Of a stretch of 64,000 bases of DNA, positions 7,968 through 64,000 are shown in pieces. The DNA comes from Prevotellaceae bacterium (GTDB lineage: Bacteria; Bacteroidota; Bacteroidia; Bacteroidales; UBA932): contig JAISAC010000158.1 of assembly GCA_031266935.1 (NCBI GenBank), forward strand, positions 6,966 through 70,965. Reading direction: 5' to 3'. Within the stretch, counting starts at the first letter, position 1. Each line of letters starts with the position of its first letter. Under the pieces are notes generated by a model. That model made no database searches. It was given only the letters and a program-made list of their open reading frames with translations, and was not told the DNA's origin. A program made the position numbers and the translations under genes.

Positions 7968-8193
7968 GGTCGGGAATTGTGTATGCAGGCTTGTTCATTA
8001 GGTATAAAAAAAATGAGCCGCGCCAGATCTTACGGGATGGCAACGACTTCTGTTGATGCAAAGGTACAAACATTTTTTATATCTGCAAAGTTTGGGAAAA
8101 GAAAATCGGGGGAAACAGCGTATAGCAGTAACTTTTTATTTCAAAATACCTACAAATGAGGATTGACGACAATATTTATTGTTCATACCTTTG
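7968..8193. repeat. Right copy of the promoter-bearing direct repeat (the partner is at 3914-4078)
   Basis: See the left copy. Contains the plus-strand -7 box TACCTTTG at 8186-8193. It also contains a minus-strand -7 box (caaaggta, 8061-8068) facing the R-M-S gene. Confidence 0.85.
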
Positions 8194-36079: not shown

Positions 36080-36299
36080 AAAAATAGCGACGATGAACAT
36101 TCTACGGTAGCTGTTTTCTTTAAATATGTCATTTTGTCAGCATATTTACCTTGTATGCTTGCCTATTTTGCAGCGATTATTGCCATACAATATGACAAAT
36201 TGTCATCATTTTATCATTGGCACACTACTTGAAAGTTTACCTTACGAAAACCATTATTTAATCATTATTTAATCATTTAATATTAGGAGGACATACACT

Positions 36300-36728
36300 A
36301 TGAACCTGATTAAAAGAAACCAAAATTGGCTGCCCGACGTATTTAGCGATTTGTTCAGCAACGACTGGATGCTACGGGCAAATGCAACCGCACCGGCTAT
36401 CAATATTGCTGAAACCGAAAAGGACTACAGGGTTGAAGTTGCCGCCCCCGGCATGACCAAAGAGGATTTTTGCGTGCGCATTGACGACGACAACAACCTT
36501 GTTATCTCAATGGAGAAGAAGGCCGAAGCTTCGGAAAAAAACGAAAGCGAGCTCTACCTGCGGCGCGAATTTTCGTACAGCAAGTTTGAGCAGAAGATGA
36601 TTCTTCCCAAAAATGCGGACAAGGACAAAATCTCGGCAAAAATGGAGCACGGGGTGCTGAACGTTTCTATCCCTAAAATGAACGAGGAGGATATCAAAAA
36701 AAGCATGAAAATGATAGATATCTCCTAA
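36300..36728 (+). CDS. Hsp20/alpha-crystallin small heat-shock protein
   Basis: 142 aa. Alpha-crystallin domain (DYRVEVAAPGMTKEDFCVRIDDDNNLVIS...SKFEQKMILP...HGVLNVSIPK). Confidence 0.92.
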   Translation: MNLIKRNQNWLPDVFSDLFSNDWMLRANATAPAINIAETEKDYRVEVAAPGMTKEDFCVRIDDDNNLVISMEKKAEASEKNESELYLRREFSYSKFEQKMILPKNADKDKISAKMEHGVLNVSIPKMNEEDIKKSMKMIDIS

Positions 36729-36751
36729 CGGATAGCATGGGAATGAAGACG

Positions 36752-36790
36752 AAAAAGCTGCTACAATTATCAAGTAGCAGCTTTTTTTGT
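36752..36790 (+). terminator. Intrinsic terminator after hsp20
   Basis: Stem AAAAAGCTGCTAC / GTAGCAGCTTTTT followed by a T-run. Confidence 0.8.
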
Positions 36791-36871
36791 TGGGGATACT
36801 CAGTGAATGAAAATACCATTCCTAACCAAATTTATTACGAAATTGGGTGGGATTTTTTTTGTTTTTCCTTT

Positions 36872-37239
36872 GTAAAAAATTTTTTCCCATTTGTTCGCGC
36901 TTGGAAATCGTAGAATTTTCATCTAATTTTGTGGACATAATTCAAAGTATAAATCTATGCATGAAGCAACGGAATATCCTGTTGAGGACGTAATGGAAGA
37001 TGCTGTTTTCGTTGTCCGTAAATTTGCGCAGCAATTCAGCCTGAATCTGCGTGATGCGTTCAACTACCTGTACAAATATCAGGGGCTTGCCTTTTTACAA
37101 AAGCATTACGGATATGAGCATACGCAACCTGCTTACCGCACAATAGAAGCGCTAATCGAAATTTGCCGTAAAAACGGAGGAACGCTGTAATGAAAGTGTA
37201 TCACGGCACAAATGTTCGTTTTGACAGGATTGATTTAAG
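36872..37239. repeat. Segment duplicated at 38007-38169; the second copy lacks about 205 bp internally
   Basis: 36872-36973 matches 38007-38108 closely (promoter region plus atgcatgaagcaacgga). 37179-37239 matches 38109-38169 closely (ggaacgctgtaatgaaRgtgtatcacggcacaaatgttcgttttgacaggattgRtttaag). The deletion junction sits at an aacgga/acggag microhomology. Confidence 0.85.
36957..37190 (+). CDS. DUF3791-like small protein
   Basis: 77 aa, in the usual position directly upstream of a DUF3990-type gene with an overlapping TAATG. A -7 box TAatTTTG lies at 36924-36931. The family assignment is from memory. Confidence 0.6.
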   Translation: MHEATEYPVEDVMEDAVFVVRKFAQQFSLNLRDAFNYLYKYQGLAFLQKHYGYEHTQPAYRTIEALIEICRKNGGTL

Positions 37240-37261
37240 TAAATGCAGTCCCGACAAATAA
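37190..37261 (+). pseudogene. Remnant of a DUF3990-family gene (first 23 codons only)
   Basis: MKVYHGTNVRFDRIDLSKCSPDK* matches the characteristic 'M.lYHGs...f....l' start of DUF3990 proteins (about 150-170 aa) but stops after 23 codons. Confidence 0.5.
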
Positions 37262-37506
37262 TGCTCGGAACGCCGACAGCGGTAGCGCTCATCCAGCCGG
37301 ACAATACTTTCATTTCCAAAACGGAAGATATTATTACGAACATGGGCGTGGCGCTGGTAAATAATTTTAAAATGGATATAATTGAGGCAATGAAAATAAT
37401 CTACAATTCCGAAACATTTCTATCCCTTACAAACAAAGAAATAAGGTTGTTTGAAAAATCATGGACTGAAATCTATGAAATGCTGAAAAAGGAATCGGGC
37501 ATGTAA
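37243..37506 (+). CDS. Second DUF3791-like small protein (start uncertain)
   Basis: The C-terminal part ...DIIEAMKIIYNSETFLSLTNKEIRLFEKSWTEIYEMLKKE resembles DUF3791. The N-terminal region may be junk left by the DUF3990 deletion. Confidence 0.45.
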   Translation: MQSRQIMLGTPTAVALIQPDNTFISKTEDIITNMGVALVNNFKMDIIEAMKIIYNSETFLSLTNKEIRLFEKSWTEIYEMLKKESGM

Positions 37507-37644
37507 CTATTCGCTAAAAACATGAAATCCAAAAAAACCAGAAGCGCCAAGAGGACAAATGGTCTCAACGTATAAAATAATAAAAAAAGGGGTAGCCTAA
37601 TAAGGTTGCCCCCCACTTCCCGAACGGACTTATGCCCTCCAATG

Positions 37645-37722
37645 GAGTCCTGTCCTCAACGTCCGAAACGCTTTTCCGGTTTTTCTACCGGCAAAGGTAC
37701 AAATAATTCCGAAACTATAAAA
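37645..37722. repeat. About 78-bp repeat containing a terminator-like hairpin; second copy at 38547-38622
   Basis: gaRtcctgYcctcaacgtccgaaacgcYttt(c)cggtttttctaccggMaaagStacaaaWaattccRaaactaYaaa, roughly 88% identity. CCGAAA..TTTCGG plus a T-run forms a hairpin. Confidence 0.8.
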
Positions 37723-37725
37723 AAA

Positions 37726-38000
37726 GGCTTATTCTTTTTTTGAGGTACTATGAAAAGAGTTTGCTGCTTGGTAGTTAGAATACAGATAGAACGAGGGTCA
37801 ACTGAAAACCTCATTTTCACCTAATTTTTCCAACAAAACAACCTCAGTAGCAAATATTTACACGATTCACCCAACCTCATTACCTCATTTTTCCGCGACC
37901 GTTTTTATCATTTTTAATGAGGTAATGAGGTTGTTGTTGTATGTTAATTAATTGCTACTGAGGTTGTTTTGTTGGAAAAATTAGGTAAAAATGAGGTTCT
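37726..38000. mobile_element. Nested-palindrome MITE-like element, copy 1 (the right terminal repeat is missing)
   Basis: Left end ggcttattctttttttgaggtactatgaaaag. Internal inverted pairs are acctaatttttccaacaaaacaacctcagtagca / tgctactgaggttgttttgttggaaaaattaggt and cctcattacctcatt / aatgaggtaatgagg. No ORF. Confidence 0.65.
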
Positions 38001-38258
38001 TCTTCTGTAAAAAATTTTTTCCCATTTGCTCGCGCTTGGAAATCGTAAAATTTTCATGTAAGTTTGTGGACATAATTCAAAGTATAAATCTATGCATGAA
38101 GCAACGGAGGAACGCTGTAATGAAGGTGTATCACGGCACAAATGTTCGTTTTGACAGGATTGGTTTAAGGGATCTCCTAGAAACTTCTCCAAGTGAGGTA
38201 ATGAGTAACTTGCGCGGGGTAAGCTATTTGTCAACGTTGCGGTACACGCATAGTATGA

Positions 38259-38333
<75 letters not shown>

Positions 38334-38634
38334 CGAAGAAAAGGGTAAAGATAACTCTTTTTTCTTTAGCAAGCAACATAATTTTATCTCCAACCGTGCA
38401 AATAAAATGGGGTGCAAAAGAGGGCAATTTTTCCTCTTTGCGCCCCGTTCTACTTTGTGTACGCAGCGAAGAAACGCTCGGCATGAATAGTACCTGAGTA
38501 GCTACCCTAATTTTTATAACAAAACAACCTCAGTAGCAATAGATATGAAGTCCTGCCCTCAACGTCCGAAACGCCTTTCGGTTTTTCTACCGGAAAAGCT
38601 ACAAAAAATTCCAAAACTACAAAGAAATCACGCA

Positions 38635-40497
38635 ATGAAGCATTATCTTAAATTTTTCCTTAAATATCTCCTTTTTTGGATGGCGGTCTTTGCCTACGCA
38701 AGGATTGTGTTTTACATTTTCTACTTTACCGAGCTCCGCTTGCAGGGCGTAAACCTCTGGTGGGAAATTTTCCCAACGCTTTTTCACGCATGGAAGTTAG
38801 ACATTTCGGCAGCCTGCTACCTTTTGCTTGTCCCGTTTTTGCTCTGCGCTGCGCAAATGTTTTTCAAAAAAAGCTGGTCGGTGTACGCCATTTTGGGCTA
38901 CAGCGCGCTGCTCTTGCTGGTGTACTTTGGCATCGTAGGCGGAGAGATGGGTATTTACGGCGAGTGGCAGTCCAAGCTCACCTACAAGGCGTTGCTTTAC
39001 CTGAGGCATCCGGACGAGGTGGTCAACTCGGCTCCTATAGGGCAAGTGATTGCCTTGACGCTAATAGCCATCGGCAGCACGGCGCTTTGGACGTTTATTT
39101 TCAGGCGGTGGTTTTTGGATAAAAAGCTCTCAAAAGTGAAATGGTATTTTGCCGCGCCATACATTTTAATCGCGCCTGTTCTGATTTTGGGCGGCATAAG
39201 AGGCGGGACAGGGACTGCGCCCATACATCAAAGCGTTGCCTACTTTTCAAAGAAGCAAATCCTGAACGATATTGCCGTAAATCCGGCATGGAACTTTCTC
39301 CACAGCATAGTACACGGCATTGGCATTCTCGAAAAGAATCCTTTTGTTGCCATGCCGCAAGACGAGGCGGAAGCTATCGTTGCAGCCCTTCATCACGTGG
39401 AGAAGGACACAAGCCTCATGGTGCTGAGCGCTGAAAAACCGAACATCGTTATTCTTATTTTGGAAAGCTGGTCGGGGGATATGATAGAGTCTATCGGCGG
39501 CACCGCCGGCATAACGCCCAACTTTAAGCGCTTGGAGCAGGATGGGCTTATGTTTGGGCAACTCTACTCCGGCGGCAAGCGGTCGCAGCAGGGGATTGCG
39601 GGGATTTTGGCGGGCTACCCTGCCTTGCCGCAGGTAGCGGTGGGCGATTTTCCGGACAAGGCAAAGCGGCTGCCCACCCTTACGCAGCGCCTCAGCGAGC
39701 ATGGGTACCATACCTCGTTTTACTTTGGCGGGCAGCTGGACCACGGCAACGTAGGGGCTCTTATTGCGCTCAATCAGTTTGCCCGATATGTGCTCGAGAA
39801 AGATTTTACCGGTAGCCATCTGCACCGCGGCAAGCTGGGCGTACACGATGAGGATGTGCTGGCGCGGCAGCTCGAAGACCTCCGCAAAGAGCCGCAGCCT
39901 TTCTTTTCGGCGCTTTTCACGCTCAGCTCACACTCGCCGTTTGACCAGCCGCTGCAAAACGCTCTGGATTGGAGTTTGCCGCAAATGCCCTTCCTCAACT
40001 CGGTTTACTACGCCGACAAGTGCTTAGGCGAATACTTTGCCCAAGCCCGTCGGGAGGCGTGGTACGGCAATACGCTTTTCGTTCTGGTTGCCGACCACGG
40101 GCGCGTAAGCCACATTACAAGGGATTTTTACTCTTTTGAGTACCTCCACATACCCATGCTGCTCTACGGCGATGCGCTCAAGCCGGAGTTCAGGGGGCAG
40201 CGCATAAACCACCTTGCTACGCAGGCCGACCTCCCGAAAACGCTGCTAAAGCAGCTGAAAATAGACGCTACGCCATTCCCCTGGAGTAAGGATATTCTCA
40301 ATCCCTATACGGAAAACTTTGCGTACGTGGAGGAAAATGCAGGCCCCGGCTACAAGCGTCCGGAAGGAAGCTTTGTGTATAGCTTTGATAGCAACTCTTT
40401 CATCAACAAAGACCTGCCGGCAAGCGACAGCGCAAGGATTTTCAGAGAGGGGGCTGCCTATCTGCAGGTTTTGTTTCAGGAGTTTATAGAGCTGTGA
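38635..40497 (+). CDS. LTA-synthase/sulfatase-family membrane protein (alkaline phosphatase superfamily)
   Basis: Five N-terminal TM helices, then a sulfatase-like domain (NIVILILESWSGD..., LFTLSSHSPF, LFVLVADHG). The start is taken at MKHYLKFF (38635), because the upstream part of the ORF lies in repeat sequence. Confidence 0.85.
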   Translation: MKHYLKFFLKYLLFWMAVFAYARIVFYIFYFTELRLQGVNLWWEIFPTLFHAWKLDISAACYLLLVPFLLCAAQMFFKKSWSVYAILGYSALLLLVYFGIVGGEMGIYGEWQSKLTYKALLYLRHPDEVVNSAPIGQVIALTLIAIGSTALWTFIFRRWFLDKKLSKVKWYFAAPYILIAPVLILGGIRGGTGTAPIHQSVAYFSKKQILNDIAVNPAWNFLHSIVHGIGILEKNPFVAMPQDEAEAIVAALHHVEKDTSLMVLSAEKPNIVILILESWSGDMIESIGGTAGITPNFKRLEQDGLMFGQLYSGGKRSQQGIAGILAGYPALPQVAVGDFPDKAKRLPTLTQRLSEHGYHTSFYFGGQLDHGNVGALIALNQFARYVLEKDFTGSHLHRGKLGVHDEDVLARQLEDLRKEPQPFFSALFTLSSHSPFDQPLQNALDWSLPQMPFLNSVYYADKCLGEYFAQARREAWYGNTLFVLVADHGRVSHITRDFYSFEYLHIPMLLYGDALKPEFRGQRINHLATQADLPKTLLKQLKIDATPFPWSKDILNPYTENFAYVEENAGPGYKRPEGSFVYSFDSNSFINKDLPASDSARIFREGAAYLQVLFQEFIEL

Positions 40498-43700: not shown

Positions 43701-44295
43701 CACCAAGGTTGAGCTGACGTGGCAAAGCAACAAGTCGAAGTACCTGCTCATAAATGGCTTTGAGCTTCGGCAAAATAGCGCTGTTGGCCTCACCGCAAGG
43801 CAGCGGCTGGCGGACGTGCTGCTGGTGAGCGCCGGAGCGCAGCGCGAAGCCAAAGTCTACGGTGCGCAGTACGCCCAAGCCAACGCCGGCTACGATATTT
43901 TGCACCATTCGCTTAGCGCAGGCGGCGAGCTCACCCCGCTAATGCACCTGCGCGTGAACGCCGCCTACAAGCTTTCCGCAAAAAAAAACCGCACCGGCGT
44001 TGAAGCTGCCGTGCTGCACGAAGCGCAGGCAGAACTCACCTGCAACTTTCCGCAAAAAGGCATGGCTGCGGGCGGGCTGGGCTTCATCTCCACTTCATTC
44101 GACGGCGAGAGCGGCGGCACGGTAGGCTACGAAATGCTGCAAGGCTACGGCGCAGGCAACAACCTCACGTGGAATCTTTCCTTAAGGCGGACGCTCGGCA
44201 AGGGGCTTGAGCTGAGCCTGCTCTACTCCGGCCGCCGGCTGCCTGTTGGAGCAACAGTGCATAGCGGGAGCATGGAGGTCAGGTTGATGTTTTGA
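40795..44295 (+). CDS. Large putative outer-membrane beta-barrel protein
   Basis: 1166 aa. N-terminal signal-like segment (LLTTCCLLLLLPLTQAAAA). Long stretches with alternating hydrophobic/polar residues, rich in Y/G/S/A. The C-terminus ...GSMEVRLMF ends in Phe, as outer-membrane beta-barrels typically do. No family recognised. Confidence 0.6.
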   Translation: MPKISVKKSGQMPLLTTCCLLLLLPLTQAAAARQQNILRSFSLAVTSDTTQLDTLSIVPHSLVLRDGQGRLVPDSLFWVDYHSALLVGRLLRGQTVHVAYRAFPVLFTKAYFSKEHEAYLSGDTIFNSPNPFFAPQSSLYQGEGILSNSGLEHSGSLMRGVNMSVGSNASLTSELSLQLSGKLTDELSMVAVVSDKNLPVSPEGNTASLQEFDKVFVSVFTDNATLSAGDVEVSEAQDFFGKHSRKALGAEFSTLQKKSGAAYRASASVGVGKGKFARKTLSIMDGNQGPYLLSGAEGERNIVALSGSERVYADGRLLERGSDADYTISYATAEITFMPRYLATRNSRIIVEFEYSERSYARYIANLKNSVRLQNGSAYLNVFYEGDAKSQPIDENLTEVEKQQMANAGAQFWRAVAPSVDSVAYSSSEILYRKKDTVAGGITHHIYEYSTNPGEAFFRLKFSEVEAGSGSYSLVRSAANGRVYAWVGKGYGSYEPVQALVTPKQKFLLTAGGTFGVDSLSGVALDAALSNSNANLFAVEPAGAGRTGFAVNLKGDKAWAIAPQSRIVATAATLLFDKNFDAPERFVSAEFERDWNIEGELTGRNFQQYSGLLGYRYADKFSANASLTVISAGETDATLSPLDTSFSAMQGGMLCADLRLRQRRFVGFANASLLRTLQRNRSTQFVRAKAEAAQSFWQLTAGVRGELEHNNISVDQMLQPAGKAFHAEEIFLRSDSGRHAAAIFARSRTDFIPQRSVLQAYSQAQEAGISGELNGEAVRNRLTASYRHVRYVDSAATENMLMGREEFSGIFAKGFINTSALYELGTGMDPKQDFIYVEVGTGQGIYTWRDYNANGVKELNEFEVAAFRDEASYIRVALPSREYVQTYTGKFSFQISLLPAMLWQQRSGVQGFLSRLSNTFSFSNAHKNLRSSFAKNANPFFSEPLGDTAVVNQSYTALNTLTYLSPGARTKVELTWQSNKSKYLLINGFELRQNSAVGLTARQRLADVLLVSAGAQREAKVYGAQYAQANAGYDILHHSLSAGGELTPLMHLRVNAAYKLSAKKNRTGVEAAVLHEAQAELTCNFPQKGMAAGGLGFISTSFDGESGGTVGYEMLQGYGAGNNLTWNLSLRRTLGKGLELSLLYSGRRLPVGATVHSGSMEVRLMF

Positions 44296-44327
44296 AAATT
44301 CAAATTAATCATTATGTCATAAAAAAT

Positions 44328-44771
44328 GGCTAAATCTTTTTTTGAGGTGCTATGAAAATAGCTTGCAGCTCGGTAGTTAATACAGAGAATGTGAGGCAAT
44401 CGGAAACCTCATTTTTACCTAATTTTTTCTAACAAAACAACCTCAGTAACACATAGTTACATTAATATATCCAAACCTCATTACCTCATTACCTCATTTT
44501 TTTTCGTGTCCATTTCATCGTTTTAATGAGGTAATGAGTCCCCCATTAAACAGCGTTAAATGTCAAATTGCAAACAACTGATAAATAATCGTTTACGATT
44601 TAGTTGTATGAAAGGTTGTTGATATACGTATTAATTCATTGCTACTGAGGTTGTTTTGTTAGAAAAATTAGGTAAAAATGAGGTTTCAAACTTTCGCAAG
44701 AATGACAGTGGGAGGGAGGAGGGAAAGACTCAGAATGAAATTTTCATAGCGCCTCAAAAAAAGAATTAGCC
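44328..44771. mobile_element. Nested-palindrome MITE-like element, copy 2 (complete, about 444 bp)
   Basis: Terminal inverted repeats ggctaaatctttttttgaggtgctatgaaaat (44328-) and attttcatagcgcctcaaaaaaagaattagcc (-44771). Second-level inverted repeat at 44404-44450 / 44639-44688. Third-level cctcattacctcatt / aatgaggtaatgag. No ORF. Confidence 0.75.
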
Positions 44772-45318
44772 GGGTTTGTTTGGGTGTATTATTTGGTTAA
44801 TTAAAATTTTGTTTCTACATTTGCCCTACCGAAATTGTACTATATGAACATCTACGAAAAAGGTTGTTGCCGTTTTTCTCGTTAGCGTTTATTGGCTATA
44901 TCGTTTAGGGAAAAAAATAAATAAAACAAAACATTATGTGGTTAGTTATTTTCATGGCAACTTTAGGTGCTACAGCGGCAATCGCTACGAGTATTGTTGT
45001 ATATCGCAACAGAGAAATACTATTTCCTAAGCATGGACACACAGCCTAATCCTTGCTTTTTTGGCATCGTTTGCCCCCCCCATTTTTATCCGTCTGTGTG
45101 TATATTATTTGCTGCTAACCTTAGTAAGCATAACGTAGAATTTAAATGTTAGAAATTTTATTCTAAGTTACTGATTACTAAGGTTTTTTTTGCAAACAAA
45201 AATATGCTTAATATTACTATAATACATTAAATATCAGAATGTTATAATTTTTTGTCATGCACTAAGAAAAATGTATTAACTTTGCAGCCATAAAAATAGT
45301 ACTCAAAAAACTACAGCT

Positions 45319-45528
45319 ATGGCAAAATACACAAAAGAGGAGTATGCGCTTGCTAAAAAGCAGTCGGATGAGTTGCTTGCGCTAATCCTCAAAAAAACAG
45401 GAACCTCGCGTAAGAAGCTTTATGAGCTTGCGAAGCACGAATTTGTTGCTGCAAACCTTGATGTTGTAACCTCTGACGAACGGAAACAGTTTGATAGATT
45501 GGTTTTTGGATTATGGGCAGTAAAATAA
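45319..45528 (+). CDS. Small hypothetical protein
   Basis: 69 aa, helical and charged (MAKYTKEEYALAKKQSDELL...). A -7 box TAacTTTG lies at 45277-45284. Confidence 0.5.
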   Translation: MAKYTKEEYALAKKQSDELLALILKKTGTSRKKLYELAKHEFVAANLDVVTSDERKQFDRLVFGLWAVK

Positions 45529-45588
45529 AACGTATTTACGTTGATACCAATTGGCAACGAATAACCCGCCAAGCAAAATAATTTTTAT

Positions 45589-46497
45589 ATGGATTTACTT
45601 ATTGCCAATAACGTAGCCAAGCGTTACACCAACCACTTGGCGCTCAATGACGTAAGCATCAGCGTTCCCACCGGAAGCATTTACGGGCTGCTGGGTCCCA
45701 ACGGAGCGGGGAAAACCACCCTGATTCGCATCATCAACCGGATTACTGCGCCCGACACCGGACAAGTGCTATTTGACAGCTGCCCCATGCAGGCCGACGA
45801 TATTCTCCGGATAGGCTACCTGCCCGAAGAGCGCGGCTTGTATAAAAAAATGAAGGTAGGCGAACAGGCGCTTTATCTGGCGCGGCTCAAAGGCATGTCG
45901 CGGCACGACGCCATGACACAGCTCAAAATATGGTTTGCCAAATTCGAAATCCAAGCATGGTGGAACAGAAAGGTAGAAGAGCTCTCAAAAGGAATGGCGC
46001 AAAAAGTACAATTCATCGTTACCATCCTGCACAAGCCCAAGCTGCTCATTTTTGACGAGCCTTTCAGCGGTTTTGACCCCGTGAACGTAAACCTGCTCAA
46101 GCAGGAAATACTGAACATGAAAGCGCAGGGCAGCACCATTATTTTCTCTACCCACAACATGGCCTCGGTCGAGGAGCTGTGCGACAGCATTGCGCTCATC
46201 AACAAATCAAAGGTGATTGTAGAGGGAAAGTTAGACGAAGTGCGCCGGCAGCATGGCGACAACATCGTAGAAGTCGCTTTCCGCGGCGACCCTGCCGAAT
46301 TGCAGCAAGCATTGCACGGCGAATATACCCTTCTCCGGCAAAAAGAACAGAACGGGATACATAAGGCAAGCATTAAAATCACGGAGCAGAAGCCTGCCAA
46401 TCATCTTTTGCAGCAGCTGTTGCCGCGCGTTGAAATCGTTGGCTTCAACGAAATCATTCCCAGCATGAACGATATTTTTATCAAATTAGTATCCTAA
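45589..46497 (+). CDS. ABC transporter ATP-binding protein (ABC-2/NatA-like)
   Basis: Walker A GPNGAGKTT, signature LSKGMAQK, Walker B LLIFDEPFSGFD. Confidence 0.9.
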   Translation: MDLLIANNVAKRYTNHLALNDVSISVPTGSIYGLLGPNGAGKTTLIRIINRITAPDTGQVLFDSCPMQADDILRIGYLPEERGLYKKMKVGEQALYLARLKGMSRHDAMTQLKIWFAKFEIQAWWNRKVEELSKGMAQKVQFIVTILHKPKLLIFDEPFSGFDPVNVNLLKQEILNMKAQGSTIIFSTHNMASVEELCDSIALINKSKVIVEGKLDEVRRQHGDNIVEVAFRGDPAELQQALHGEYTLLRQKEQNGIHKASIKITEQKPANHLLQQLLPRVEIVGFNEIIPSMNDIFIKLVS

Positions 46498-49115: not shown

Positions 49116-49243
49116 CTCATTACCTCATTAAAACGATGAAATGGACACGAAAAAATGAGGTTTTCTGCTGCCCCACATTCTATCTGTATTCTAACTACCG
49201 AGCTGCAAGCTACTTTCATAGCGCCTCAAAAAAAGATTTAGCC
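49116..49243. mobile_element. MITE-like element, copy 3 (half element, reverse orientation)
   Basis: The reverse complement matches the left terminal repeat, adjacent region and central motif of copy 2 (ggctaaatctttttttgaggcgctatgaaagtagcttgcagctcggtagtta... / ...cgttttaatgaggtaatgag). It lacks the 'acctaattttt..cagtagc' module. Confidence 0.7.
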
Positions 49244-49300
49244 TTTTAGTGGGCATCTTGGGTTTAATTCGCTACATTTGCCATTTTTATTTTAAGAGAT

Positions 49301-56482: not shown

Positions 56483-56494
56483 AAAGCGCAAAAA

Positions 56495-56546
56495 GAGGCC
56501 TCCCGCCTGGCGTAGCAAAAAATGCTCACCAAGCGCGGGAGGCCTC
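56495..56546. terminator. Bidirectional hairpin between convergent genes
   Basis: A 12-bp stem GAGGCCTCCCGC (56495-506) / GCGGGAGGCCTC (56535-546) lies between the EEP gene and the end of the six-gene operon. Confidence 0.55.
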
Positions 56547-56561
56547 CTTGTCTTCATGCAG

Positions 56562-57533
56562 CTATAGCTTTCCTGTGATTTGTGAAATATCGAACTTGCC
56601 GTCGATGTTTTGAATTTCGATTTTTCCTTTGAGAATGTCGAAAAAGAAATCGCGGATACGGTCGAACGTCAGCGTGGCCGGGTTGCCGTCCTTATCAACG
56701 CCCATATCGTAGCTTTTCAGCAGCTGCGACCCCAGGGCGGCTGCGGTAAGCAGGAAATGATTTTGGAATTTGTCGGTATCCAGCAGGTCGGCTGCCAGCA
56801 CCTTTCCGATTACGGTGTAGCTGCGCAACGTTTTCTGAATATCCTCGCCGGTAAGCGTAGCTTTCACCTCGTCGGTGGCAATATTCATTTCTATTTTGCC
56901 CGAATTTTGAGACTGCGGCAAACCCTTGTACAGCGCGCCTAAATCTGCCAAGCTCAGGCTGTAGAGCTTGGCATCAGGTGTAGCAATCATTTTTTCGATC
57001 GAAAATGCGCTCGGCAGCAGCAAGCTCACTGCCCCTGCAACTCGCACCGACGGCGTGTTGAAAGTGCCGACAATGCAGCTCGTCAAGTCAGCTTGCTGCG
57101 TTGCAAAAACGCCGCCGATGACTATGCAGTTTTCCAAAACAATTTCGTCGGCATAAATGCTGCCCGCCACAAAGGCATTGTAGAGCGTTACGCTTTTGGC
57201 GTTAACGTCGGAGTAAAACACGCACTTGCAGCTTGCAGCCCGCGATACAATGGAATTTGCAGAGCCAACGCTTTTTTTGAAGGCAATATTTCCTTTTGCC
57301 TCGCTGTTTACGTAAAGCTCCAGCTGCGTAAAAGTGGCGCCCTGAATTTCCAAATCGCCGTTTTGGATTTCTATCCTGTGCCCAAAAACAGGCCCTTCGA
57401 TAACCGTATTGCCCTTGCAGATTATGTTACGGTTAAGCTCTGCCACTTTTTCGGGCAGAATAGAGCCTCTCACTAAATTATCCTGCAGCAGGACATCTGT
57501 TTCGTTAAAGCGAAGTTCTTTTAACTCTTTCAT
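56562..57533 (-). CDS. Operon gene 6: beta-helix (bactofilin/polymer-forming-like) N-terminal domain with an unknown C-terminal domain
   Basis: 323 aa. Residues about 35-165 show short repeating V/I-x-G-x-V/I beta-helix-like units (NTVIEGPVFGHRIEIQNGDLEIQGATF...VTLYNAFVAGSIYADEIVLENCIVIGGVFA). No enzymatic motif. Confidence 0.7.
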   Translation of the reverse strand: MKELKELRFNETDVLLQDNLVRGSILPEKVAELNRNIICKGNTVIEGPVFGHRIEIQNGDLEIQGATFTQLELYVNSEAKGNIAFKKSVGSANSIVSRAASCKCVFYSDVNAKSVTLYNAFVAGSIYADEIVLENCIVIGGVFATQQADLTSCIVGTFNTPSVRVAGAVSLLLPSAFSIEKMIATPDAKLYSLSLADLGALYKGLPQSQNSGKIEMNIATDEVKATLTGEDIQKTLRSYTVIGKVLAADLLDTDKFQNHFLLTAAALGSQLLKSYDMGVDKDGNPATLTFDRIRDFFFDILKGKIEIQNIDGKFDISQITGKL

Positions 57534-57551
57534 TTTTACTTGATTTTGTAG

Positions 57552-58574
57552 CTATATGCTTTTAATTGAATTGAAATTCAACATTCTAATAATGTTCTCT
57601 TTTACGCGATCGGTGTGAGCGTCGGCAGAGGCGTAGCAATTGCTAACCTCTGCGTGGAAGTACTGCCCAATTTTTTCGGCGCTATCCTTGGAAAGGCGGC
57701 CCCAGCTTTGCTGCTCAAAGCCGGCAGCTAATTCGTTTGCCTGTATTTTCGACAAAAAATCGGCTTGATACATACTCTTGCCGATTTGGCTTTTTTCGTT
57801 TTGCGTTTCGATAAAGCAAACCGGCAAATACCGGGCAGCGGCAACGCTTTCCTTCAGCATGCTTTGGTTGATTGTAGCGTTCAGCTGTTTTTGCTTGAGC
57901 AAAAATGTATTTGCCTTGCCGATGGCGCTCAACGCGCGTTTTTTGATGATAGACGCGCTGATTTTTGCCTGCAAGTCGCCACCCTCTGCTCCGAAAACGG
58001 CAACGGTGCTGACCAAATCGCTGCCCGAGATACGAATTGCCTGATTGTCGCTTTCGCGCTTGAAAACAAAAGCAGGCTTGTTCAGCTCGAAAATTCGGTT
58101 TTCCAGCTCGCCGTTCAGGTCGTCAAATATCTTTACGTAGCGGCTTGATATGCGGCTGTAATCCTTTTCCATTTGCTGCTGCTTGCCTGCGCAGCGCTTT
58201 GCCAGCTCGCGCAGGTGCACAAGGGTAGCGTCGAGCTTTGTTGAGAGCTCCATAATTTGCTGGCTGATTTCGGAGCGAATTGTCTTGAAAAAGCCATCAA
58301 CAATTGTAGCTCCTACTTTCCTGGCGTTGCTGTAGATGGCGTCAATTTGCGCGGCTTCGGTGGCAACAACTGCGCCCGTCAGCAGGTTAACCGTCCGGTT
58401 GCAGCCGTCAATGCTTTTGTCGAACGGGTTTGTATCAACGTCAACATTTACCGTAACATCTTCGGAGGCAGTCCCGCTATACGAAACCCGTCCACCGTGC
58501 TGAGAGGCAGGATAGCCTACTGACCCGGAATAGTGGACTGTTATTTTTTTAGAAAAACTTTGCCTGTAGCTCAT
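57552..58574 (-). CDS. Operon gene 5: coiled-coil protein, paralog of gene 4
   Basis: 340 aa. Shares with gene 4 the block DGFF.TIRSEISQQI..L...LD..L..L........Q.MEKDYSRISSRYVKIFDDLNGELENRIFELNKP and further N- and C-terminal similarity. Confidence 0.75.
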   Translation of the reverse strand: MSYRQSFSKKITVHYSGSVGYPASQHGGRVSYSGTASEDVTVNVDVDTNPFDKSIDGCNRTVNLLTGAVVATEAAQIDAIYSNARKVGATIVDGFFKTIRSEISQQIMELSTKLDATLVHLRELAKRCAGKQQQMEKDYSRISSRYVKIFDDLNGELENRIFELNKPAFVFKRESDNQAIRISGSDLVSTVAVFGAEGGDLQAKISASIIKKRALSAIGKANTFLLKQKQLNATINQSMLKESVAAARYLPVCFIETQNEKSQIGKSMYQADFLSKIQANELAAGFEQQSWGRLSKDSAEKIGQYFHAEVSNCYASADAHTDRVKENIIRMLNFNSIKSI

Positions 58575-58579
58575 ATGTG

Positions 58580-59500
58580 CTAATTTTTAATAGTTTGATA
58601 ATTATTAGCCAAAAACAATTTATTAGCCACATCTTTTACTCGCTGCGAGGAATTTGAGGCCGAAAGGTATTTGCTAAACTCGCTTTTCACGTCCCTGTTG
58701 ATTTCCCTTTCCTGCTGCCATTGAATACTTTCAATGCCGGAGCTGACGGTATTTTTAATGGAGATTTGAGCTTGCCTGCTCAATGCAACGCTGCTTACCA
58801 TAACGTCAATATTCTTGTTGCCGAATTTATCGAAGTTACATTCGCTAATCACAACAGGGACGGACAGGGAGGCGGTTTCTGTCTTTACATTGTCGGCAAG
58901 CAAAATCCGGTCGGTAAGCTTCTTTTGCTCCGACATATCGGCAAGAAACCGCGTCATCGAATTGATAACCTTCAGGCCGCGAAATTTTACGCTCGAAGCA
59001 ATGATTTTTTGGCTTGCCGCCAGCGACTCCAGCTGCGAAACGGGAACAGTTGCCGTCAGGTGCTTTGTTCTGTTCGCTACTTTTTCCACCTCCTTAACGG
59101 CAAAATCAACAGTAGGTTTATCCAGCTCAAAAACCCGCTGCTTCAGGTTTTGGTTAAGCCCGCTAAAGAGCTTCAGGTATCGGCTGGAAATCATGCTGTA
59201 ATCGCGCTCCATTCGCCCTTTGATAGCCAGCAGCTGCTTGCGCTGCTGGTTGAGCTGCATCAAGTGCGAATCAACCTCGCTTCGCAGCTTGGCCACTTTT
59301 TGCGAAATTTGGGAACGGATTAAGGTGTAAAAGCCTCTGTTTACGTTATCGCAAACGAGGTTGGCGGCTTTCTGCTCTGCCAGCACTACGGCGGTTTGCA
59401 TTGCCACAACCGCCGTGGTGGTTGCCTTTACGTGGCCGGACACAGCGCTTATTCCCTGCGCCATCGGGGTGGTATCTATTACGCAATCTATATATGCCAT
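58580..59500 (-). CDS. Operon gene 4: coiled-coil protein, paralog of gene 5
   Basis: 306 aa with the block NRGFYTLIRSQISQKVAKLRSEVDSHLMQLNQQRKQLLAIKGRMERDYSMISSRYLKLFSGLNQNLKQRVFELDKP. A 5-nt gap separates it from gene 5. Confidence 0.75.
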   Translation of the reverse strand: MAYIDCVIDTTPMAQGISAVSGHVKATTTAVVAMQTAVVLAEQKAANLVCDNVNRGFYTLIRSQISQKVAKLRSEVDSHLMQLNQQRKQLLAIKGRMERDYSMISSRYLKLFSGLNQNLKQRVFELDKPTVDFAVKEVEKVANRTKHLTATVPVSQLESLAASQKIIASSVKFRGLKVINSMTRFLADMSEQKKLTDRILLADNVKTETASLSVPVVISECNFDKFGNKNIDVMVSSVALSRQAQISIKNTVSSGIESIQWQQEREINRDVKSEFSKYLSASNSSQRVKDVANKLFLANNYQTIKN

Positions 59501-59550
59501 AAATCTCTTAAATTTTACTCGTTATCGCTATATTCGCGTTAGCGGTCTCA

Positions 59551-61518
59551 TCACTCGCCATTGCTACTTCCACTTTCTTCTGCTCCCTCGCTTTCTTTCT
59601 CAATAACCGCTTCGTAGGTGTCTGCTTGCCCCGCAAGCTCCCCGCCATTAACGGGGTTCCGGCTTTCGTCAGAATGACTTTCTGCATTTCTCCCCAAGCT
59701 TTCCAGCGCATTTTTGGCAATAACCGGCAGGTTGAGCGAAATATGCTCGAACGTAATATTTTCTACATTGGGCGAAGGCGGCAACTCGGACGTTTTGGCA
59801 AACAGCGGATTGACAATGGCCAGCGGTTTGCGGCGCTCGTCCAAGCTGTGCACTTCGCTTGCCGCAACGGCAACCGCGTTGGAGTGTCCATCGCGCAGCT
59901 TGGCGTCGTAGTATTCAATATGCCCGAATTTTTCTGCCTTCAAGTCAATATCTTCCTTGAGGCGCTCCATGTACTCCTCAAAGTTGGCCTGGGTACTTTT
60001 AAATTCATTCGACTGCAATTCAAAAGCGGCAAGCGTTTCGGCGGCATTATCTACTACATCTACCACCGTAGAGTTCAGGTCGCCGCCCGACTGCACCATG
60101 CTGTCCTCGGTGCGCTGTAGCGAAACCAGCGTGTTGTATGCAGCCACATATTCGCGCAAGCTTGCCTGCATAAGGTTGATAATTTCGGACGCTTCTGCGC
60201 GGTTGCGACCGTAAAAATCTTCGCAGTTTTCGTGCCAGCGGTTCAGGTATTCAATTTTTTGGTCTTTGATATGGTTGTAGATTTTGAGGCGCTCAATCCG
60301 ATTTTCGTTCATCAGATTTTGCACAACCGGCGCAACAATTTCTTCGTAAATCTGGTGTACGCCAAACGGCAAACCTGTAGTGCTGCCGTCTTCTGCCGTC
60401 CATACCTCCGAAAGCAGGTTGTAGCGGACGCGCGAGCTTTGCTTGAGCTGAAACGGCTCGTAGCCCTGCACATCTTCGCTGTAGTCGAACTTTTCGTTGC
60501 GAATACGCTCAATTTCCTCGTGCTCGAGAATCGGCGAATAGTGATTATACGGCGATTTCAGGATTTGGTACAGCACCTTGTTGGATTCAAAAATCACCTT
60601 GTCGGTTGAGGCTATCTTCAGCGCCGAAATGGCCTGAACGGAATTTGCCATTGCCACCATCAACCCTTTCAAAACATCTTCAAACTGCTTCGTTTTGCTC
60701 GACAGGGAGTCTTTCAGGGCATTCAACTCCTGAAACTTATTAACGTTGCCGGCGTACTTTTCTTTGTCGAAAACAGGAATAAGCGGCGCATTTGCGGGGA
60801 TTTCGGTTGTGGCGTATTCGTTCAAAAATTGCAGGTATTCGCTTTTGTCGGCAACCAGCGGAAGCGATACGGAGGTCGTGTCCAAATCGTCCATGCAGTA
60901 AGAAATGGTGCGCAGCGAGCGCTCCAGCTTGCCGAAATAGTCATGCTGGTTGATTTCCTGAATGGAGGTAGAATACTCGTCTGTTTCGATGGTTTCCGTA
61001 TCGTTTGAAGTTTCCACAATGGGCGCTTCCGACGAGAGGTTTTCTAAGTTGGCAATTGTTTCAATCAGCAAATCGTTTTGGCGCGAAAGCTGCAGCGTAA
61101 CTTCCGACTCGTCAACTTTGCCGGTGTAATCAACAATAAAGCTTTTGTCTTCGTACCTGATTTGGTCGGCCACAGGAATGTACGCAACGCCCAGCTTGCT
61201 GACTTTATAATCGCGGAAAATCTCGGCGTGCTGCTTTTTAAACTCCTCAATTCGGGCATCCTTATCCGCAGCTTGCTTTTCTAAGCTACTTTTCTTTATA
61301 AAGTAAACAAAGAACAGAATGATTGTGAGAAACCACACCCACAAGCCGGAAATTGCTTTTTGCAGCATTGCCTTTTCTTCCTTCAGCACGGCGATTTGCT
61401 TCTCAATTCGCTCCTCCTCCTGAACGATTTTTTCGGCGGCCTGGCTGTAGTAGCTGAATAGTATCTTCGCCTGGTCCTGGTAGATATTATTTGATTCGGG
61501 AAAAATTTTGCCTGTCAT
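59551..61518 (-). CDS. Operon gene 3: large single-pass membrane protein of unknown function
   Basis: 655 aa. N-terminal coiled-coil, one TM helix (ISGLWVWFLTIILFFVYFI), a roughly 550-aa mostly helical domain and an acidic tail. No motif recognised. Confidence 0.75.
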   Translation of the reverse strand: MTGKIFPESNNIYQDQAKILFSYYSQAAEKIVQEEERIEKQIAVLKEEKAMLQKAISGLWVWFLTIILFFVYFIKKSSLEKQAADKDARIEEFKKQHAEIFRDYKVSKLGVAYIPVADQIRYEDKSFIVDYTGKVDESEVTLQLSRQNDLLIETIANLENLSSEAPIVETSNDTETIETDEYSTSIQEINQHDYFGKLERSLRTISYCMDDLDTTSVSLPLVADKSEYLQFLNEYATTEIPANAPLIPVFDKEKYAGNVNKFQELNALKDSLSSKTKQFEDVLKGLMVAMANSVQAISALKIASTDKVIFESNKVLYQILKSPYNHYSPILEHEEIERIRNEKFDYSEDVQGYEPFQLKQSSRVRYNLLSEVWTAEDGSTTGLPFGVHQIYEEIVAPVVQNLMNENRIERLKIYNHIKDQKIEYLNRWHENCEDFYGRNRAEASEIINLMQASLREYVAAYNTLVSLQRTEDSMVQSGGDLNSTVVDVVDNAAETLAAFELQSNEFKSTQANFEEYMERLKEDIDLKAEKFGHIEYYDAKLRDGHSNAVAVAASEVHSLDERRKPLAIVNPLFAKTSELPPSPNVENITFEHISLNLPVIAKNALESLGRNAESHSDESRNPVNGGELAGQADTYEAVIEKESEGAEESGSSNGE

Positions 61519-61529
61519 ACTTTATGAGG

Positions 61530-62240
61530 TTAATGTGAATAAATATTCTTTCTATTTTGGTAAATACGTTCAAGCTTTTTGAGGTTGCTTTCAATGCGCG
61601 CTTCGTTCATCGAAAAATCGGAAAGGGCTGCCGAAATGTCGCTAATGGTCGAAACAAGCTGCCGCTCCAAGCTGCTCGCTTCCGCATTTTCGGCAGGCGA
61701 AATAAACCGCAAATTTTCTTCAAGCGCAGCTACTCTACTCGTGAAGTTTTCGGGCAAGCCGGACAAATCGCTCACTTTGTCTTGCAGGTTACGCATTGCT
61801 TTTTTCATTTCGGCAACCCCATTGCGGTTAAATGTCTCCTGCTGATAGACCTGCCGAACTTTGTCGGACGAATGAAGCGAAGCCGCAAAGCCCAAAATCA
61901 AAAGGAGCGCCAAAACGCAGTGAATGATAGCTTGCATGGCAAACGAGCAATCGAAAACCCAATTGCATACAAGCATAGCCGCAACGGCAGCAATGGCGTA
62001 AGTGCAGGTAAAAAACCATCGCACACCGAGCGAGCCGATTTTTTCCTGCGATTTATCGTCAAAATCAACCCAGGGAGCGAGAATGTCAACAAAAAACAGG
62101 CTGTAAAGGATGAAAGAAACAACAATATTCAGCGCTAAAATATTGCTATCCAAGCTGCCTGCAAAAAGGATAAGCGCAGCAATAATAACAGCCTCGCCGC
62201 CGAGCAGCGCAATCCACGATAGTATTTTTTTTGTATCCAT
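61530..62240 (-). CDS. Operon gene 2: 4-TM membrane protein with a C-terminal coiled-coil
   Basis: 236 aa from the ATG at 62240 (MDTKKILSWIALLGG...). The longer ORF in the track overlaps gene 1 and starts in its coding region. Four hydrophobic helices are followed by a heptad-rich tail. Confidence 0.7.
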   Translation of the reverse strand: MDTKKILSWIALLGGEAVIIAALILFAGSLDSNILALNIVVSFILYSLFFVDILAPWVDFDDKSQEKIGSLGVRWFFTCTYAIAAVAAMLVCNWVFDCSFAMQAIIHCVLALLLILGFAASLHSSDKVRQVYQQETFNRNGVAEMKKAMRNLQDKVSDLSGLPENFTSRVAALEENLRFISPAENAEASSLERQLVSTISDISAALSDFSMNEARIESNLKKLERIYQNRKNIYSH

Positions 62241-62274
62241 ATCATTACGTATTAAATTGTTTAAGCATATATGG

Positions 62275-63540
62275 TTATCGCTTATTTCCGCATTTTGGGC
62301 AGAATTTAACCGACGGCGGCAGCGCTGCTCCGCAGCGGCTGCAAGCGTCGCCCGGCTGTACCTGCTTTCCGCAGCTTCCACAAAATGTACTTCCCTGCGC
62401 CAAAGGTGCATTGCAGTGGGGGCAAGCTCCGCCTTCTGCCTGTAGGGGCGCTCCGCAGCTTACGCAGCGCTTTGCGTGCCGGTCATTATCGGTTCCGCAT
62501 TTGGGGCAAGGATTGTAGGGGTCGCCGCAGTGAGGGCAAAAGCGGGTTGTGCTCGGAAATTTTTTGGAGCAATTTGAGCAGTACACCATTTTAACCTGCT
62601 GCTCCTGCTGAGCAGGTTGCCCGTTGGCCCCCTGACTATTGCCGACAAAAGAGGGCTGGCTGTACTGCGGGTTCATCATTCCGCCGCCAACACCGGCGCC
62701 GCCGCCCATTCCGCCCATCATATTCATCGCCACCAGGCCGCCGAGCAGCCCGCCGTTGCCGCTGCCAAAGCCGTCAACGGCGTTGCTGGCAACATCGAAC
62801 ATTTTTTCCTGCTGCCAGGTGTGCCCGGTAATTGACATCGACGCTTGCGTCGCTATGGCTTCGGCTACTTTTTTACCTTCTTCTGTGGATTTATCAATAT
62901 CAATGGTGGTGATGTTGAATTGCAGCAGCTCTAACCCCAAATTACCCCAAAATGGATTTAGCACACCTTTTAAATATTCGGACAGCTCGTCCAAATAAGC
63001 CGATAAGTACTTAAAACCAACCCTATGCTTAATCACATATTGAGCAATCTGCGACTTTGTTTTCGTTGAAAATTCGCCAAAAAACTGATTTGTCAAATCG
63101 TCTTGCGTAAATTCGGTTTTTGTGCCGACAGCTTTGACCAAAAACTTTTCGGCTTCACTCACTTTCAGCCCGTAGCGCCCTCCTGCTACGAGCGGCAGCT
63201 GAGTGTTATAATCGGGGTCGTGAATCGGCATTTTGCTAACCGCCCAATCAATGCTGAATGCTTGGATTTTGTTTACAAACCAAACCTCTGCCGTAAAAGG
63301 ATTTTTTTTGCCGAAAGGAATACCGAACAAATTCCGCAGAATCGGTAAGTTTTCGGTGTTCAACGTATGCTTTCCCGGACCGAACTTTCCCATTATCTGC
63401 CCTTTTGAAAACAAAACCGCCTCCTGCGATTCCTGCACAATGAGCTGCGTGTAGGTGCTCAAGTTTGTTTCGGGAAAACGCCAGGCGTAAATCGTTTTAC
63501 TCCCCTGCGGCGACCAGCTGACTAAATCTATTATTGCCAT
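62275..63540 (-). CDS. Operon gene 1: YdjI-like SPFH-superfamily protein (COG4260 type) with a Gly/Met-rich linker and four C-terminal zinc ribbons
   Basis: 421 aa from the ATG at 63540. The N-terminus MAIIDLVSWSPQGSKTIYAWRFPETNLSTYTQLIVQESQEAVLFSKGQ resembles YdjI/'virion core protein-like' SPFH proteins. The linker is GGLLGGLVAMNMMGGMGGGAGVGGGMM. The C-terminus has 4 x (CxxC...CxxC). Confidence 0.8.
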   Translation of the reverse strand: MAIIDLVSWSPQGSKTIYAWRFPETNLSTYTQLIVQESQEAVLFSKGQIMGKFGPGKHTLNTENLPILRNLFGIPFGKKNPFTAEVWFVNKIQAFSIDWAVSKMPIHDPDYNTQLPLVAGGRYGLKVSEAEKFLVKAVGTKTEFTQDDLTNQFFGEFSTKTKSQIAQYVIKHRVGFKYLSAYLDELSEYLKGVLNPFWGNLGLELLQFNITTIDIDKSTEEGKKVAEAIATQASMSITGHTWQQEKMFDVASNAVDGFGSGNGGLLGGLVAMNMMGGMGGGAGVGGGMMNPQYSQPSFVGNSQGANGQPAQQEQQVKMVYCSNCSKKFPSTTRFCPHCGDPYNPCPKCGTDNDRHAKRCVSCGAPLQAEGGACPHCNAPLAQGSTFCGSCGKQVQPGDACSRCGAALPPSVKFCPKCGNKR

Positions 63541-63706
63541 ATATTTCTGATTTTCTGATTGTTTAATAATTAAGGCTTTTTTTGTTGAAAATTGCAAAAG
63601 TTATCCGGTCAACCAAGCGATTTTATTTAACAGGCAATCACCTTATAAAATCTTATGGCCGCAAAATTACTACTTTATTTTGAATAACAAAAAAAGAATA
63701 CAAACA

Positions 63707-63735
63707 GGCTAAATCTTTTTTAAGATGCTACGACA
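63707..63735. repeat. Fragment of the MITE-like terminal repeat
   Basis: ggctaaatcttttttaagatgctacgaca resembles the ggctaaatctttttttgaggtgctatgaaa terminus. Another fragment lies at 23139-23160 (gcctaaatctttttttgaggct). Confidence 0.5.
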
Positions 63736-64000
63736 GGACAGCTGCTTATTCTTCTGCTTGTACGCATCACGGCTACGGATTATATCGCGATTTTTTTGTT
63801 GCGCCAGATATAATTTTTTCCTGCACGATGATAGCTGTAACTCCAACTTTTTTTCCCGTTTTGTTTTCATAATATTATGCTATATAAATGTTTGATGCGG
63901 CAAAGACAGCTATTTTTTTGAAGACTTTTTTTTACTCCTTTTGCACACCCTATCCCTGCGGGTGGGGTGTCAAAATTAGGGGTGCAATTTTTTAAATTTA

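Follow-up and report, generated by a model that had tools for sequence, protein, structure and literature searches.

SPFH proteins are universal and their roles in bacteria are poorly understood, the sole YdjI-type protein studied so far being one that works with PspA. In Bacillus subtilis, where the pspA-ydjGHI (samGHI) module encodes it, YdjI is described as soluble, with no N-terminal membrane anchor, unlike FloA and FloT (PMC8581546). Its architecture combines an SPFH domain, a region of low complexity and a C-terminal zinc finger or zinc ribbon (PMC8581546 and PMC11237479). It requires the membrane proteins YdjG and YdjH, and it recruits PspA (PMC8581546; bioRxiv 10.64898/2026.02.06.704340). 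According to the survey PMC11237479, YdjG consists of two zinc ribbons, an NTF2-like domain and a transmembrane (TM) segment, and YdjH of a TM segment and a TPM domain. Here we describe an operon of six minus-strand genes, g1 to g6, at positions 56562-63540 of a 64,000-nucleotide stretch (hereafter the window) of contig JAISAC010000158.1, which belongs to a metagenome-assembled genome (MAG) of a Prevotellaceae bacterium. In this operon an SPFH protein of the YdjI kind appears locked into a rigid set with five unannotated proteins, one of which resembles bactofilins. Comparison between genomes argues that the module is real, strictly conserved and widespread, and we tentatively propose that its products build a scaffold beneath the membrane. 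No description of the six-gene operon was found in the searchable full-text literature, and the retrieved part of a large phage shock protein (PSP) survey makes no mention of it (PMC11237479), which agrees with the suggestion of an earlier note on this DNA that the system was undescribed.

Six genes kept in order as one operon

All six genes stand in the order of the window in 64 of the 66 Bacteroidota loci that could be assessed, 14 of the 80 loci fetched being cut by contig ends. The median gaps across loci are 19/21/12/5/14 nt, and the two incomplete loci lack g1 (L018; loci are referred to by their L numbers) or both g1 and g2 (L071). Gene order and sizes are also kept in eight divergent contigs (L089, L090, L091, L092, L093, L094, L095 and L096), and in other phyla the order persists at 27-49% protein identity. 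Co-occurrence in order beyond this genome, a check that the earlier note had named, is borne out by these loci. In the window itself, the six open reading frames (ORFs) were confirmed at the positions first listed (Table 1), with intergenic gaps of exactly 34, 11, 50, 5 and 18 nt from g1 to g6, and the public gene calls for the contig agree with the ORF starts (locus tags LBK18_07680-07700). The proposal that they form one compact operon is supported because terminator-like sites show no excess within it (9 found against 13.5 expected in a consensus scan) and a terminator follows g6. The hairpin noticed earlier at this boundary proved to be strong, its RNA folding at -45.8 kcal/mol (z -6.06; none of 200 shuffles was as stable) ahead of a run of U, and equivalent hairpins lie 3' of g6 in L007, L001 and L093.

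A peptide-pattern scan of one genome per species recovered a g6 relative in 132 of 185,579 species genomes, all of them Bacteroidota; the patterns were narrow and built from Bacteroidota sequences, so that 132 species is a lower bound. Capnocytophaga sputigena NCTC11653, C. granulosa ATCC 51502, Labilibaculum filiforme 59.16B and Dysgonomonas termitidis CCUG 66188 are among the cultured carriers, and the carriers include gut and oral genera (Alistipes, Barnesiella, Capnocytophaga). A search with a profile of divergent g6 sequences returned 1,441 proteins, and g5 and g6 each form more than 1,000 clusters at 90% identity. Named sources of g6 relatives are Treponemataceae and Ca. Ornithospirochaeta in the Spirochaetota, Oscillospiraceae and Lachnospiraceae in the Bacillota, and Bryobacteraceae in the Acidobacteriota. 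The operon order was seen in Bacteroidota, Bacillota, Acidobacteriota (L095, a Bryobacteraceae contig) and unassigned metagenome contigs, the Spirochaetota MAGs contributing g6 relatives. In L093 the operon adjoins GerA and spore-permease genes, and the host is therefore a spore-former. The set is thus found in diderm and monoderm bacteria, and its presence in monoderm Bacillota counts against a role specific to the periplasm or the outer membrane.

Insertions of 1.6 kb (L021, 4067-5644) and 0.9 kb (L017, 4930-5831) lie between g2 and g3, and one of the 14 loci cut by contig ends, L086 (300-2050), is visibly degraded, with g2-g5 fragmentary. Extra genes, uncharacterised and either on the same strand or adjacent, stand beside the operon in L091 (14412-17415; a 758-aa protein and a 221-aa zinc-ribbon protein) and L092 (8169-11065; proteins of 305 and 660 aa), as do genes for PEGA-domain proteins in L095 (2540-3972) and L096 (1190-3757); these may be lineage-specific accessories.

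Table 1. Positions of the six genes, their putative signals (window coordinates) and the carrier segment found in other loci
Feature	Position	Strand	Description
g1	62275..63540	-	421 aa; cytoplasmic SPFH protein, YdjI/SamI type (predicted)
g2	61530..62240	-	236 aa; integral membrane protein, four hydrophobic spans
g3	59551..61518	-	655 aa; membrane-anchored, variable acidic tail
g4	58580..59500	-	306 aa; soluble coiled-coil protein, paralogue of g5
g5	57552..58574	-	340 aa; soluble, N-terminal beta-hairpin and long helix (predicted)
g6	56562..57533	-	323 aa; soluble, beta-helix (predicted) and conserved C-terminal region
Intrinsic terminator	56489..56549	-	long GC-rich hairpin then UUUUUG, 13 nt past the g6 stop codon
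Candidate promoter, Bacteroidota-type	63662..63691	-	TTTG (63691-63688), 18 nt, TAATTTTG (63669-63662)
7.85-kb carrier	L001:9717-17576; L002:9717-17568; L006:2554-10408; also L004, L013

By our reading of the sequence, the TTTG-N18-TAATTTTG motif precedes the start codon of g1 by about 120 nt, and L007 carries TAATTTTG at a similar distance. The motif is a candidate g1 promoter, called on the basis of TTTG / TAnnTTTG, which we take to be the Bacteroides promoter consensus. A sigma-70 scan was uninformative for the operon promoter, and an Rfam scan returned no riboswitch or known RNA in the leader or the operon.

A YdjI/SamI-type SPFH protein among unannotated families

The g1 protein matches the Pfam family Band_7_1 (PF13421) over residues 20-221, with an E value of 1.4e-34 and 120 bits against a cut-off of 24. 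A Gly/Met-rich linker is found at about residues 265-300, and residues 318-420 hold four stretches each of Zn_Ribbon_1 and DZR, an array of eight CxxC pairs. Hydropathy gives no hydrophobic span and no TM segment, so that the protein is predicted to be soluble, unlike FloA and FloT. On its domain score, solubility, linker and zinc ribbons, g1 is assigned to the YdjI/SamI-type SPFH proteins, as in its first reading. The fusion of SPFH and zinc-ribbon parts, which the earlier note took for a departure from YdjI, is on the contrary canonical and not novel, the same architecture being reported for YdjI. Flotillin/HflK/stomatin-type SPFH proteins have an N-terminal TM segment and a long coiled-coil cap, and g1 has neither. 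The identity of g1 is 58-87% across Bacteroidota and 43-49% in other phyla, and a single-sequence PDB search with it gave no match.

In the family libraries g1 is the sole exception: searches of Pfam, NCBIfam, PADLOC and PHROGs returned nothing significant for g2-g6, which also speaks for an undescribed system. Profile searches with the g3, g5 and g6 families, the last from two alignments, gave no significant PDB match apart from those limited to the acidic tail of g3. No Walker A, HExxH or similar motif was detected in any of the six proteins, and with the library scans this upholds the first impression that the operon has no recognisable enzyme. One component is thus recognisable from its sequence (g1) and one remotely so (g6), g2, g3 and g4/g5 representing three families without annotation. 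The absence of an obvious PspA, also remarked upon at first reading, was confirmed by Pfam, where none of the six proteins matched PspA_IM30 at E up to 1, and by the hhalign and Foldseek comparisons given below for g4 and g5.

The membrane subunits g2 and g3

Hydropathy places the four spans of g2 at about residues 10-28, 33-51, 77-95 and 104-122, followed by a C-terminal tail of about 110 aa that is helical or coiled-coil, with weak matches to coiled-coil models; the four spans agree with the initial description of a 4-TM protein. It is the least conserved subunit, at 31-69% identity across Bacteroidota loci, and its gene is missing from a 61%-GC variant of the operon (L087 and L088). In this variant the gene directly upstream of g1 (L087:7286-8731; L088:2498-3943) encodes a protein of 481 aa that combines a GYF_2 domain with a Pro/Ala-rich linker and a TM segment and may be an alternative membrane partner.

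The g3 protein begins with a conserved N-terminal helix (residues 1-55), followed by a hydrophobic segment (56-74). The conserved domain that comes next, about 530 aa long, has no family match in Pfam, NCBIfam, PADLOC or PHROGs, and the variable acidic tail (about 600-655) completes the protein. Identity over residues 1-600 is 62-87% across Bacteroidota, and a HMMER search with g3 yielded relatives that form 319 clusters at 50% identity, the most distant full-length ones being 34% identical. Comparison of 16 diverse sequences drawn from several phyla leaves 47 invariant residues, none of them His or Cys. The single TM span attributed to g3 in the earlier note is present, but the classical arrangement of one pass and an external domain is improbable for g3, several relatives having two adjacent TM segments. 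A zinc ribbon occurs at the N-terminus of g3 in L087 (10001-10110) and L092 (2175-2280), the arrangement of zinc ribbon and TM segment being confined to the N-terminus of some g3 relatives. With the N-terminal zinc ribbon and the two TM segments seen in relatives, both ends of g3 would be cytoplasmic. If the soluble parts of the operon's products are all cytoplasmic, the single 19-residue segment of the Bacteroidota g3 would be a monotopic anchor or a topological variant.

The paralogues g4 and g5

That g4 and g5 are paralogous, as first proposed, is clear from BLASTP (32% identity, E 6e-30) and hhalign (probability 100%), and an all-vs-all hhalign comparison of the six families found them to be the sole related pair. 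The g4 protein, which lacks the N-terminal beta-hairpin of g5, has its conserved core at residues 60-160 and gave no family match in Pfam, NCBIfam, PADLOC or PHROGs beyond coiled-coil stretches. Across Bacteroidota, identity is 51-80% for g4 and 44-71% for g5. An AlphaFold2 model of g5 built from 42 sequences (predicted local distance difference test, pLDDT, 69; predicted template modelling score, pTM, 0.22) predicts a beta-hairpin at residues 3-46, a very long helix at 49-181, a second helix at 189-239 and a small alpha/beta C-terminal domain. The hairpin is amphipathic (2x18 residues, alternating hydrophobic and polar), and its YPAS-x-GG turn is conserved across phyla. Foldseek searches of PDB and BFVD with the model found nothing at E 0.001 or better, and no PspA, Vipp1 or ESCRT-III structure was among the matches. 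Those of the hairpin were to the stems of beta-pore-forming toxins over about 46 residues, at E 0.34 or worse and none significant, the rest of g5 being helical. A reading of g4/g5 as divergent PspA was rejected at the sequence level, since hhalign gave a probability of 0.6% between the g5 family and E. coli PspA.

The beta-helix protein g6

The AlphaFold2 model of g6 (pTM 0.76) predicts a beta-helix at about residues 10-195, with pLDDT above 90 for at least residues 10-160, and the C-terminal region at 208-323 is extremely conserved and modelled with low confidence. Alignment columns average 87% identity, and the protein is 66-97% identical across Bacteroidota and about 41% identical in other phyla; by these figures g6 is evidently under strong purifying selection. 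In the earlier note it was called a bactofilin-like beta-helix protein. The beta-helix is supported by the model, but the likeness to bactofilins amounts to a remote resemblance only: the window protein has no Pfam match at E up to 1, and Foldseek against PDB returned generic beta-helices at E 0.03 or worse and no bactofilin entry. Pfam Bactofilin matches at E up to 1 were obtained for 14 of 29 diverse g6 relatives (best 3.4e-5), one relative carries a precomputed PF04519 match, and IMG calls some relatives CcmA. A C-terminal zinc ribbon is found on g6 in L096 (10001-11299) and also in P0474 and P0486.

Mobility of the operon

Horizontal spread of the operon is well supported by the comparison of loci, because copies have unrelated flanks and a transposon-like carrier occurs in other genomes. 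The window and L007, from a related Prevotellaceae MAG, are 94.7% identical exactly over 56498-63563 and unrelated outside it, and similarity clustering sorts the 354 flanking ORFs into 275 clusters, with no conserved neighbour. In Tenuifilaceae-type genomes the operon lies inside a 7.85-kb segment, 97.6% identical between loci, which occupies three unrelated insertion sites; two of these lie in an AAA_14/DUF4143 gene, at different codons. The left end of this carrier always reads TTACCAACAAGCC... and immediately follows a flank ending CTATG, and the right end is always ...CTGCTACACTCAACCG, the terminus pair being TTACCAACAAGCC... / ...ACACTCAACCG. The insertions show no target duplication, and no recombinase is encoded within the carrier. 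It looks like a non-autonomous, target-specific transposable element with the operon as cargo; movement of a large structural operon in this manner would be unusual. A subterminal hairpin is significant at the right end (z -2.7) and not at the left end (z -1.1); with a hairpin at the right end only, an IS200/IS605 identity was not retained, and the carrier is left unassigned to a family. Similar left ends precede g1 in L010, L016, L025, L030, L031 and L048, and the window has neither carrier end.

L013 and L016 (on JAKPTX010000128 and JAKPTX010000267) are different whole-operon copies attributed to a single MAG; the second copy may be real, which would be consistent with transposition, or may be a binning artefact. 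A low-complexity 75-aa ORF upstream of g1 in L001-L006, located in the carrier leader and absent from the window, was treated as spurious.

Horizontal acquisition had been put forward in the earlier note on account of a lower GC content and a fragment of a miniature inverted-repeat transposable element (MITE) terminus. The spread is real, but these two features do not show it. The GC content of the operon is indeed lower than that of the rest of the window (48.3% vs 50.6%), but it falls within the 37-62% range per kb, and as a sign of acquisition the difference was rejected as too small. Stronger GC outliers, at 37-43% against an average of about 50%, are located at window positions 2001-4000, 6001-8000, 36001-39000 and 44001-46000. 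Similarly, an identity of 16 nt (AAAAAAGATTTAGCC) to the terminus of a MITE-like repeat is present upstream of the operon at 63706-63721, but nothing longer. The repeat, which has internal inverted repeats (AATGAGGTAATGAGG...), occurs at window 37732-37998, 44335-44771 and 49151-49249 and at L007:13212-13616. A 53-aa Lys/Arg-rich ORF (MKTKREKKLELQLSS...) at window 63709-63870 on the minus strand, between the window end and the putative promoter, overlaps the 16-nt match and showed no homology.

A putative sub-membrane scaffold and its alternatives

We tentatively propose that the six proteins would form one self-contained complex on the cytoplasmic face of the cell membrane, a scaffold that stabilises or remodels stressed membrane in a manner similar to SamGHI-PspA. 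The four TM segments of g2 and the hydrophobic anchor of g3 would make these two proteins the membrane receptors, on which g1 would dock and oligomerise; g4 and g5 would form a heteromeric coiled-coil rod and g6 would add a bactofilin-like beta-helix element, the whole constituting a sub-membrane lattice. By analogy with the B. subtilis system, its job would be to detect, and then to stabilise or remodel, stressed or damaged membrane, the g4/g5/g6 layer standing in for PspA. The operon, its domain content, the strict co-inheritance and the lack of known enzymes are observations; that the products associate, lie on the cytoplasmic side, polymerise and protect against stress is what we infer. 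When a module shifts from one subunit to another, this is classically taken as evidence for a shared complex, and zinc ribbons behave in this way here: every locus examined has them in g1, L087 and L092 carry one at the g3 N-terminus, and in L096, P0474 and P0486 the g6 C-terminus has one. This argues that the subunits share one complex. The soluble parts would all face the cytoplasm because of these zinc ribbons, the two-TM relatives of g3, and the lack, by hydropathy, of any hydrophobic span fit for a signal peptide or a TM segment in g1, g4, g5 and g6. A structural and not an enzymatic role is suggested by the long helix of g5, the beta-helix of g6 with the weak Bactofilin matches of its relatives, the lack of catalytic motifs, the lack of invariant His or Cys residues in g3 and the strong purifying selection on g6.

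Several observations weigh against such a scaffold. PspA and ESCRT-III proteins are absent from the operon, and g4/g5 have no sequence or fold similarity to them; with PspA absent and g4/g5 unlike it, g1 is the one component that carries the SamGHI-PspA analogy. In the Pfam scan, g2 and g3 showed no TPM, NTF2-like or other domain. The model of g5 is of low global confidence, as its pTM indicates, and the Bacteroidota g3, with its one hydrophobic segment of 19 aa, leaves room for more than one topology. An unrecognised enzyme may reside in the 530-aa domain of g3 or in the C-terminus of g6. Finally, a patchy and horizontally mobile distribution is unusual for a housekeeping stress system.

There is a substantial chance, though less than even, that the operon encodes a new kind of enzyme-free membrane machine and not a version of the Psp/SPFH stress scaffold. 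This would be either a six-protein coat or lattice that actively remodels or gates the cytoplasmic membrane, functionally analogous to ESCRT-III or caveolar coats, or a triggered pore that uses the g5 hairpin, and as a mobile cassette it would have reached at least four phyla.

The patchy distribution, with flanks that are unrelated even between near-identical copies, would also suit a membrane-acting anti-phage (abortive-infection) system, whose membrane and SPFH parts would sense infection and whose coiled-coil and beta-helix parts would permeabilise or depolarise the membrane, possibly via the g5 hairpin. This amphipathic hairpin is conserved, and its sole structural matches, although non-significant, are the toxin stems described above; the operon is enzyme-free, like some membrane-effector defence systems, and the 7.85-kb cargo lies in L002 and L006 inside a PDC-S01-like AAA_14/DUF4143 gene, which in L002 adjoins Cas9-Cas1-Cas2. 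However, the E values of the hairpin matches count against it, and the PADLOC matches of g2 to LmuB (E 3.6e-4) and of g4 to ZorG (E 4e-3) cover coiled-coil stretches only. Among the immediately adjacent genes, which the defence-neighbour test covered, about 6 of 123 ORFs match PADLOC, and housekeeping genes (LpxK, FeoB, ribosomal protein S12, glycosidases) are the most frequent neighbours, ABC transporters also being present among them. No g6 match was found by tblastn in 72,556 plasmids or 50,697 phages, nor any copy in IMG/VR contigs by pattern scan, and an identity of 66-97% for g6 across Bacteroidota classes is unlike that of fast-diversifying defence genes. We therefore regard the defence role and the location in defence islands raised in the earlier note as unlikely.

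About equally improbable is a constitutive membrane-attached cytoskeletal or coat module, which would position or shape a membrane domain, an invagination or vesicle, or an envelope-synthesis site, with no response to damage. The parts list would lend itself to this: a bactofilin-like beta-helix in g6, long coiled-coil paralogues in g4 and g5, an SPFH oligomeriser in g1 and two membrane anchors, of which the g3 segment may enter the membrane as a monotopic anchor or as a hairpin that leaves both ends in the cytoplasm. The level of conservation is typical of polymer-forming proteins, and bactofilin and coiled-coil shape complexes or flotillin and caveolin-cavin coats offer loose analogies. A core morphogenetic role is nevertheless difficult to reconcile with an accessory operon found, by narrow patterns, in 132 of 185,579 species genomes, which is mobile, degraded or partial in L086, L018 and L071, and whose carriers differ widely in shape and envelope type. 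As for six accidental neighbours or independent units, the idea is scarcely credible when 64 of 66 assessable loci keep the genes in order with short gaps, other phyla keep it at 27-49% protein identity amid otherwise unrelated flanks, and a terminator stands only after g6.

Should the sub-membrane scaffold be correct, it would represent a PspA-independent means of membrane protection or remodelling. Several new protein families would be defined, SPFH scaffolds would be linked to beta-helix and coiled-coil polymers, and the cultured carriers would make for a tractable test of membrane organisation by SPFH proteins.

Comparison with known systems

Like the membrane-associated anti-phage systems Zorya and Kiwa, the locus is a multi-gene, membrane-anchored and horizontally mobile accessory operon. 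It differs from them in having no PADLOC homology (PADLOC-DB v2) beyond coiled-coil noise, no defence-island context and a much higher conservation. With SPFH-NfeD pairs and flotillin/HflKC cages it shares an SPFH protein co-encoded with a small multi-TM protein, and the IMG name of g2, 'regulation of membrane protease activity', corresponds to the NfeD-like COG, a likeness of name only. In contrast to these pairs, g2 has no Pfam match to NfeD at E up to 1 and the operon includes no protease partner. The bactofilins (PF04519, such as BacA and CcmA) resemble g6 in its beta-helix with a repeating hydrophobic/Gly pattern and in the weak profile matches of its relatives. The bactofilin domain is roughly 110 residues long, however, whereas the helix of g6 has about 180, and g6 has an additional conserved C-terminal region of about 115 aa, for which we know of no bactofilin counterpart.

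The closest comparison is with the pspA-ydjGHI (samGHI) module of B. subtilis, outside which the operon appears to fall, having no PspA and no YdjG-type or YdjH-type partners. The six-gene operon encodes no PspA/ESCRT-III protein, and in place of YdjG and YdjH it has g2, g3, g4/g5 and the predicted beta-helix protein g6. Its g1 has four zinc ribbons, where the literature gives YdjI one C-terminal zinc finger or ribbon, and the six-gene set spans at least four phyla. What the two have in common is an SPFH protein of the YdjI/SamI architecture, encoded beside integral membrane proteins and a helical protein that is non-enzymatic and probably oligomerises.

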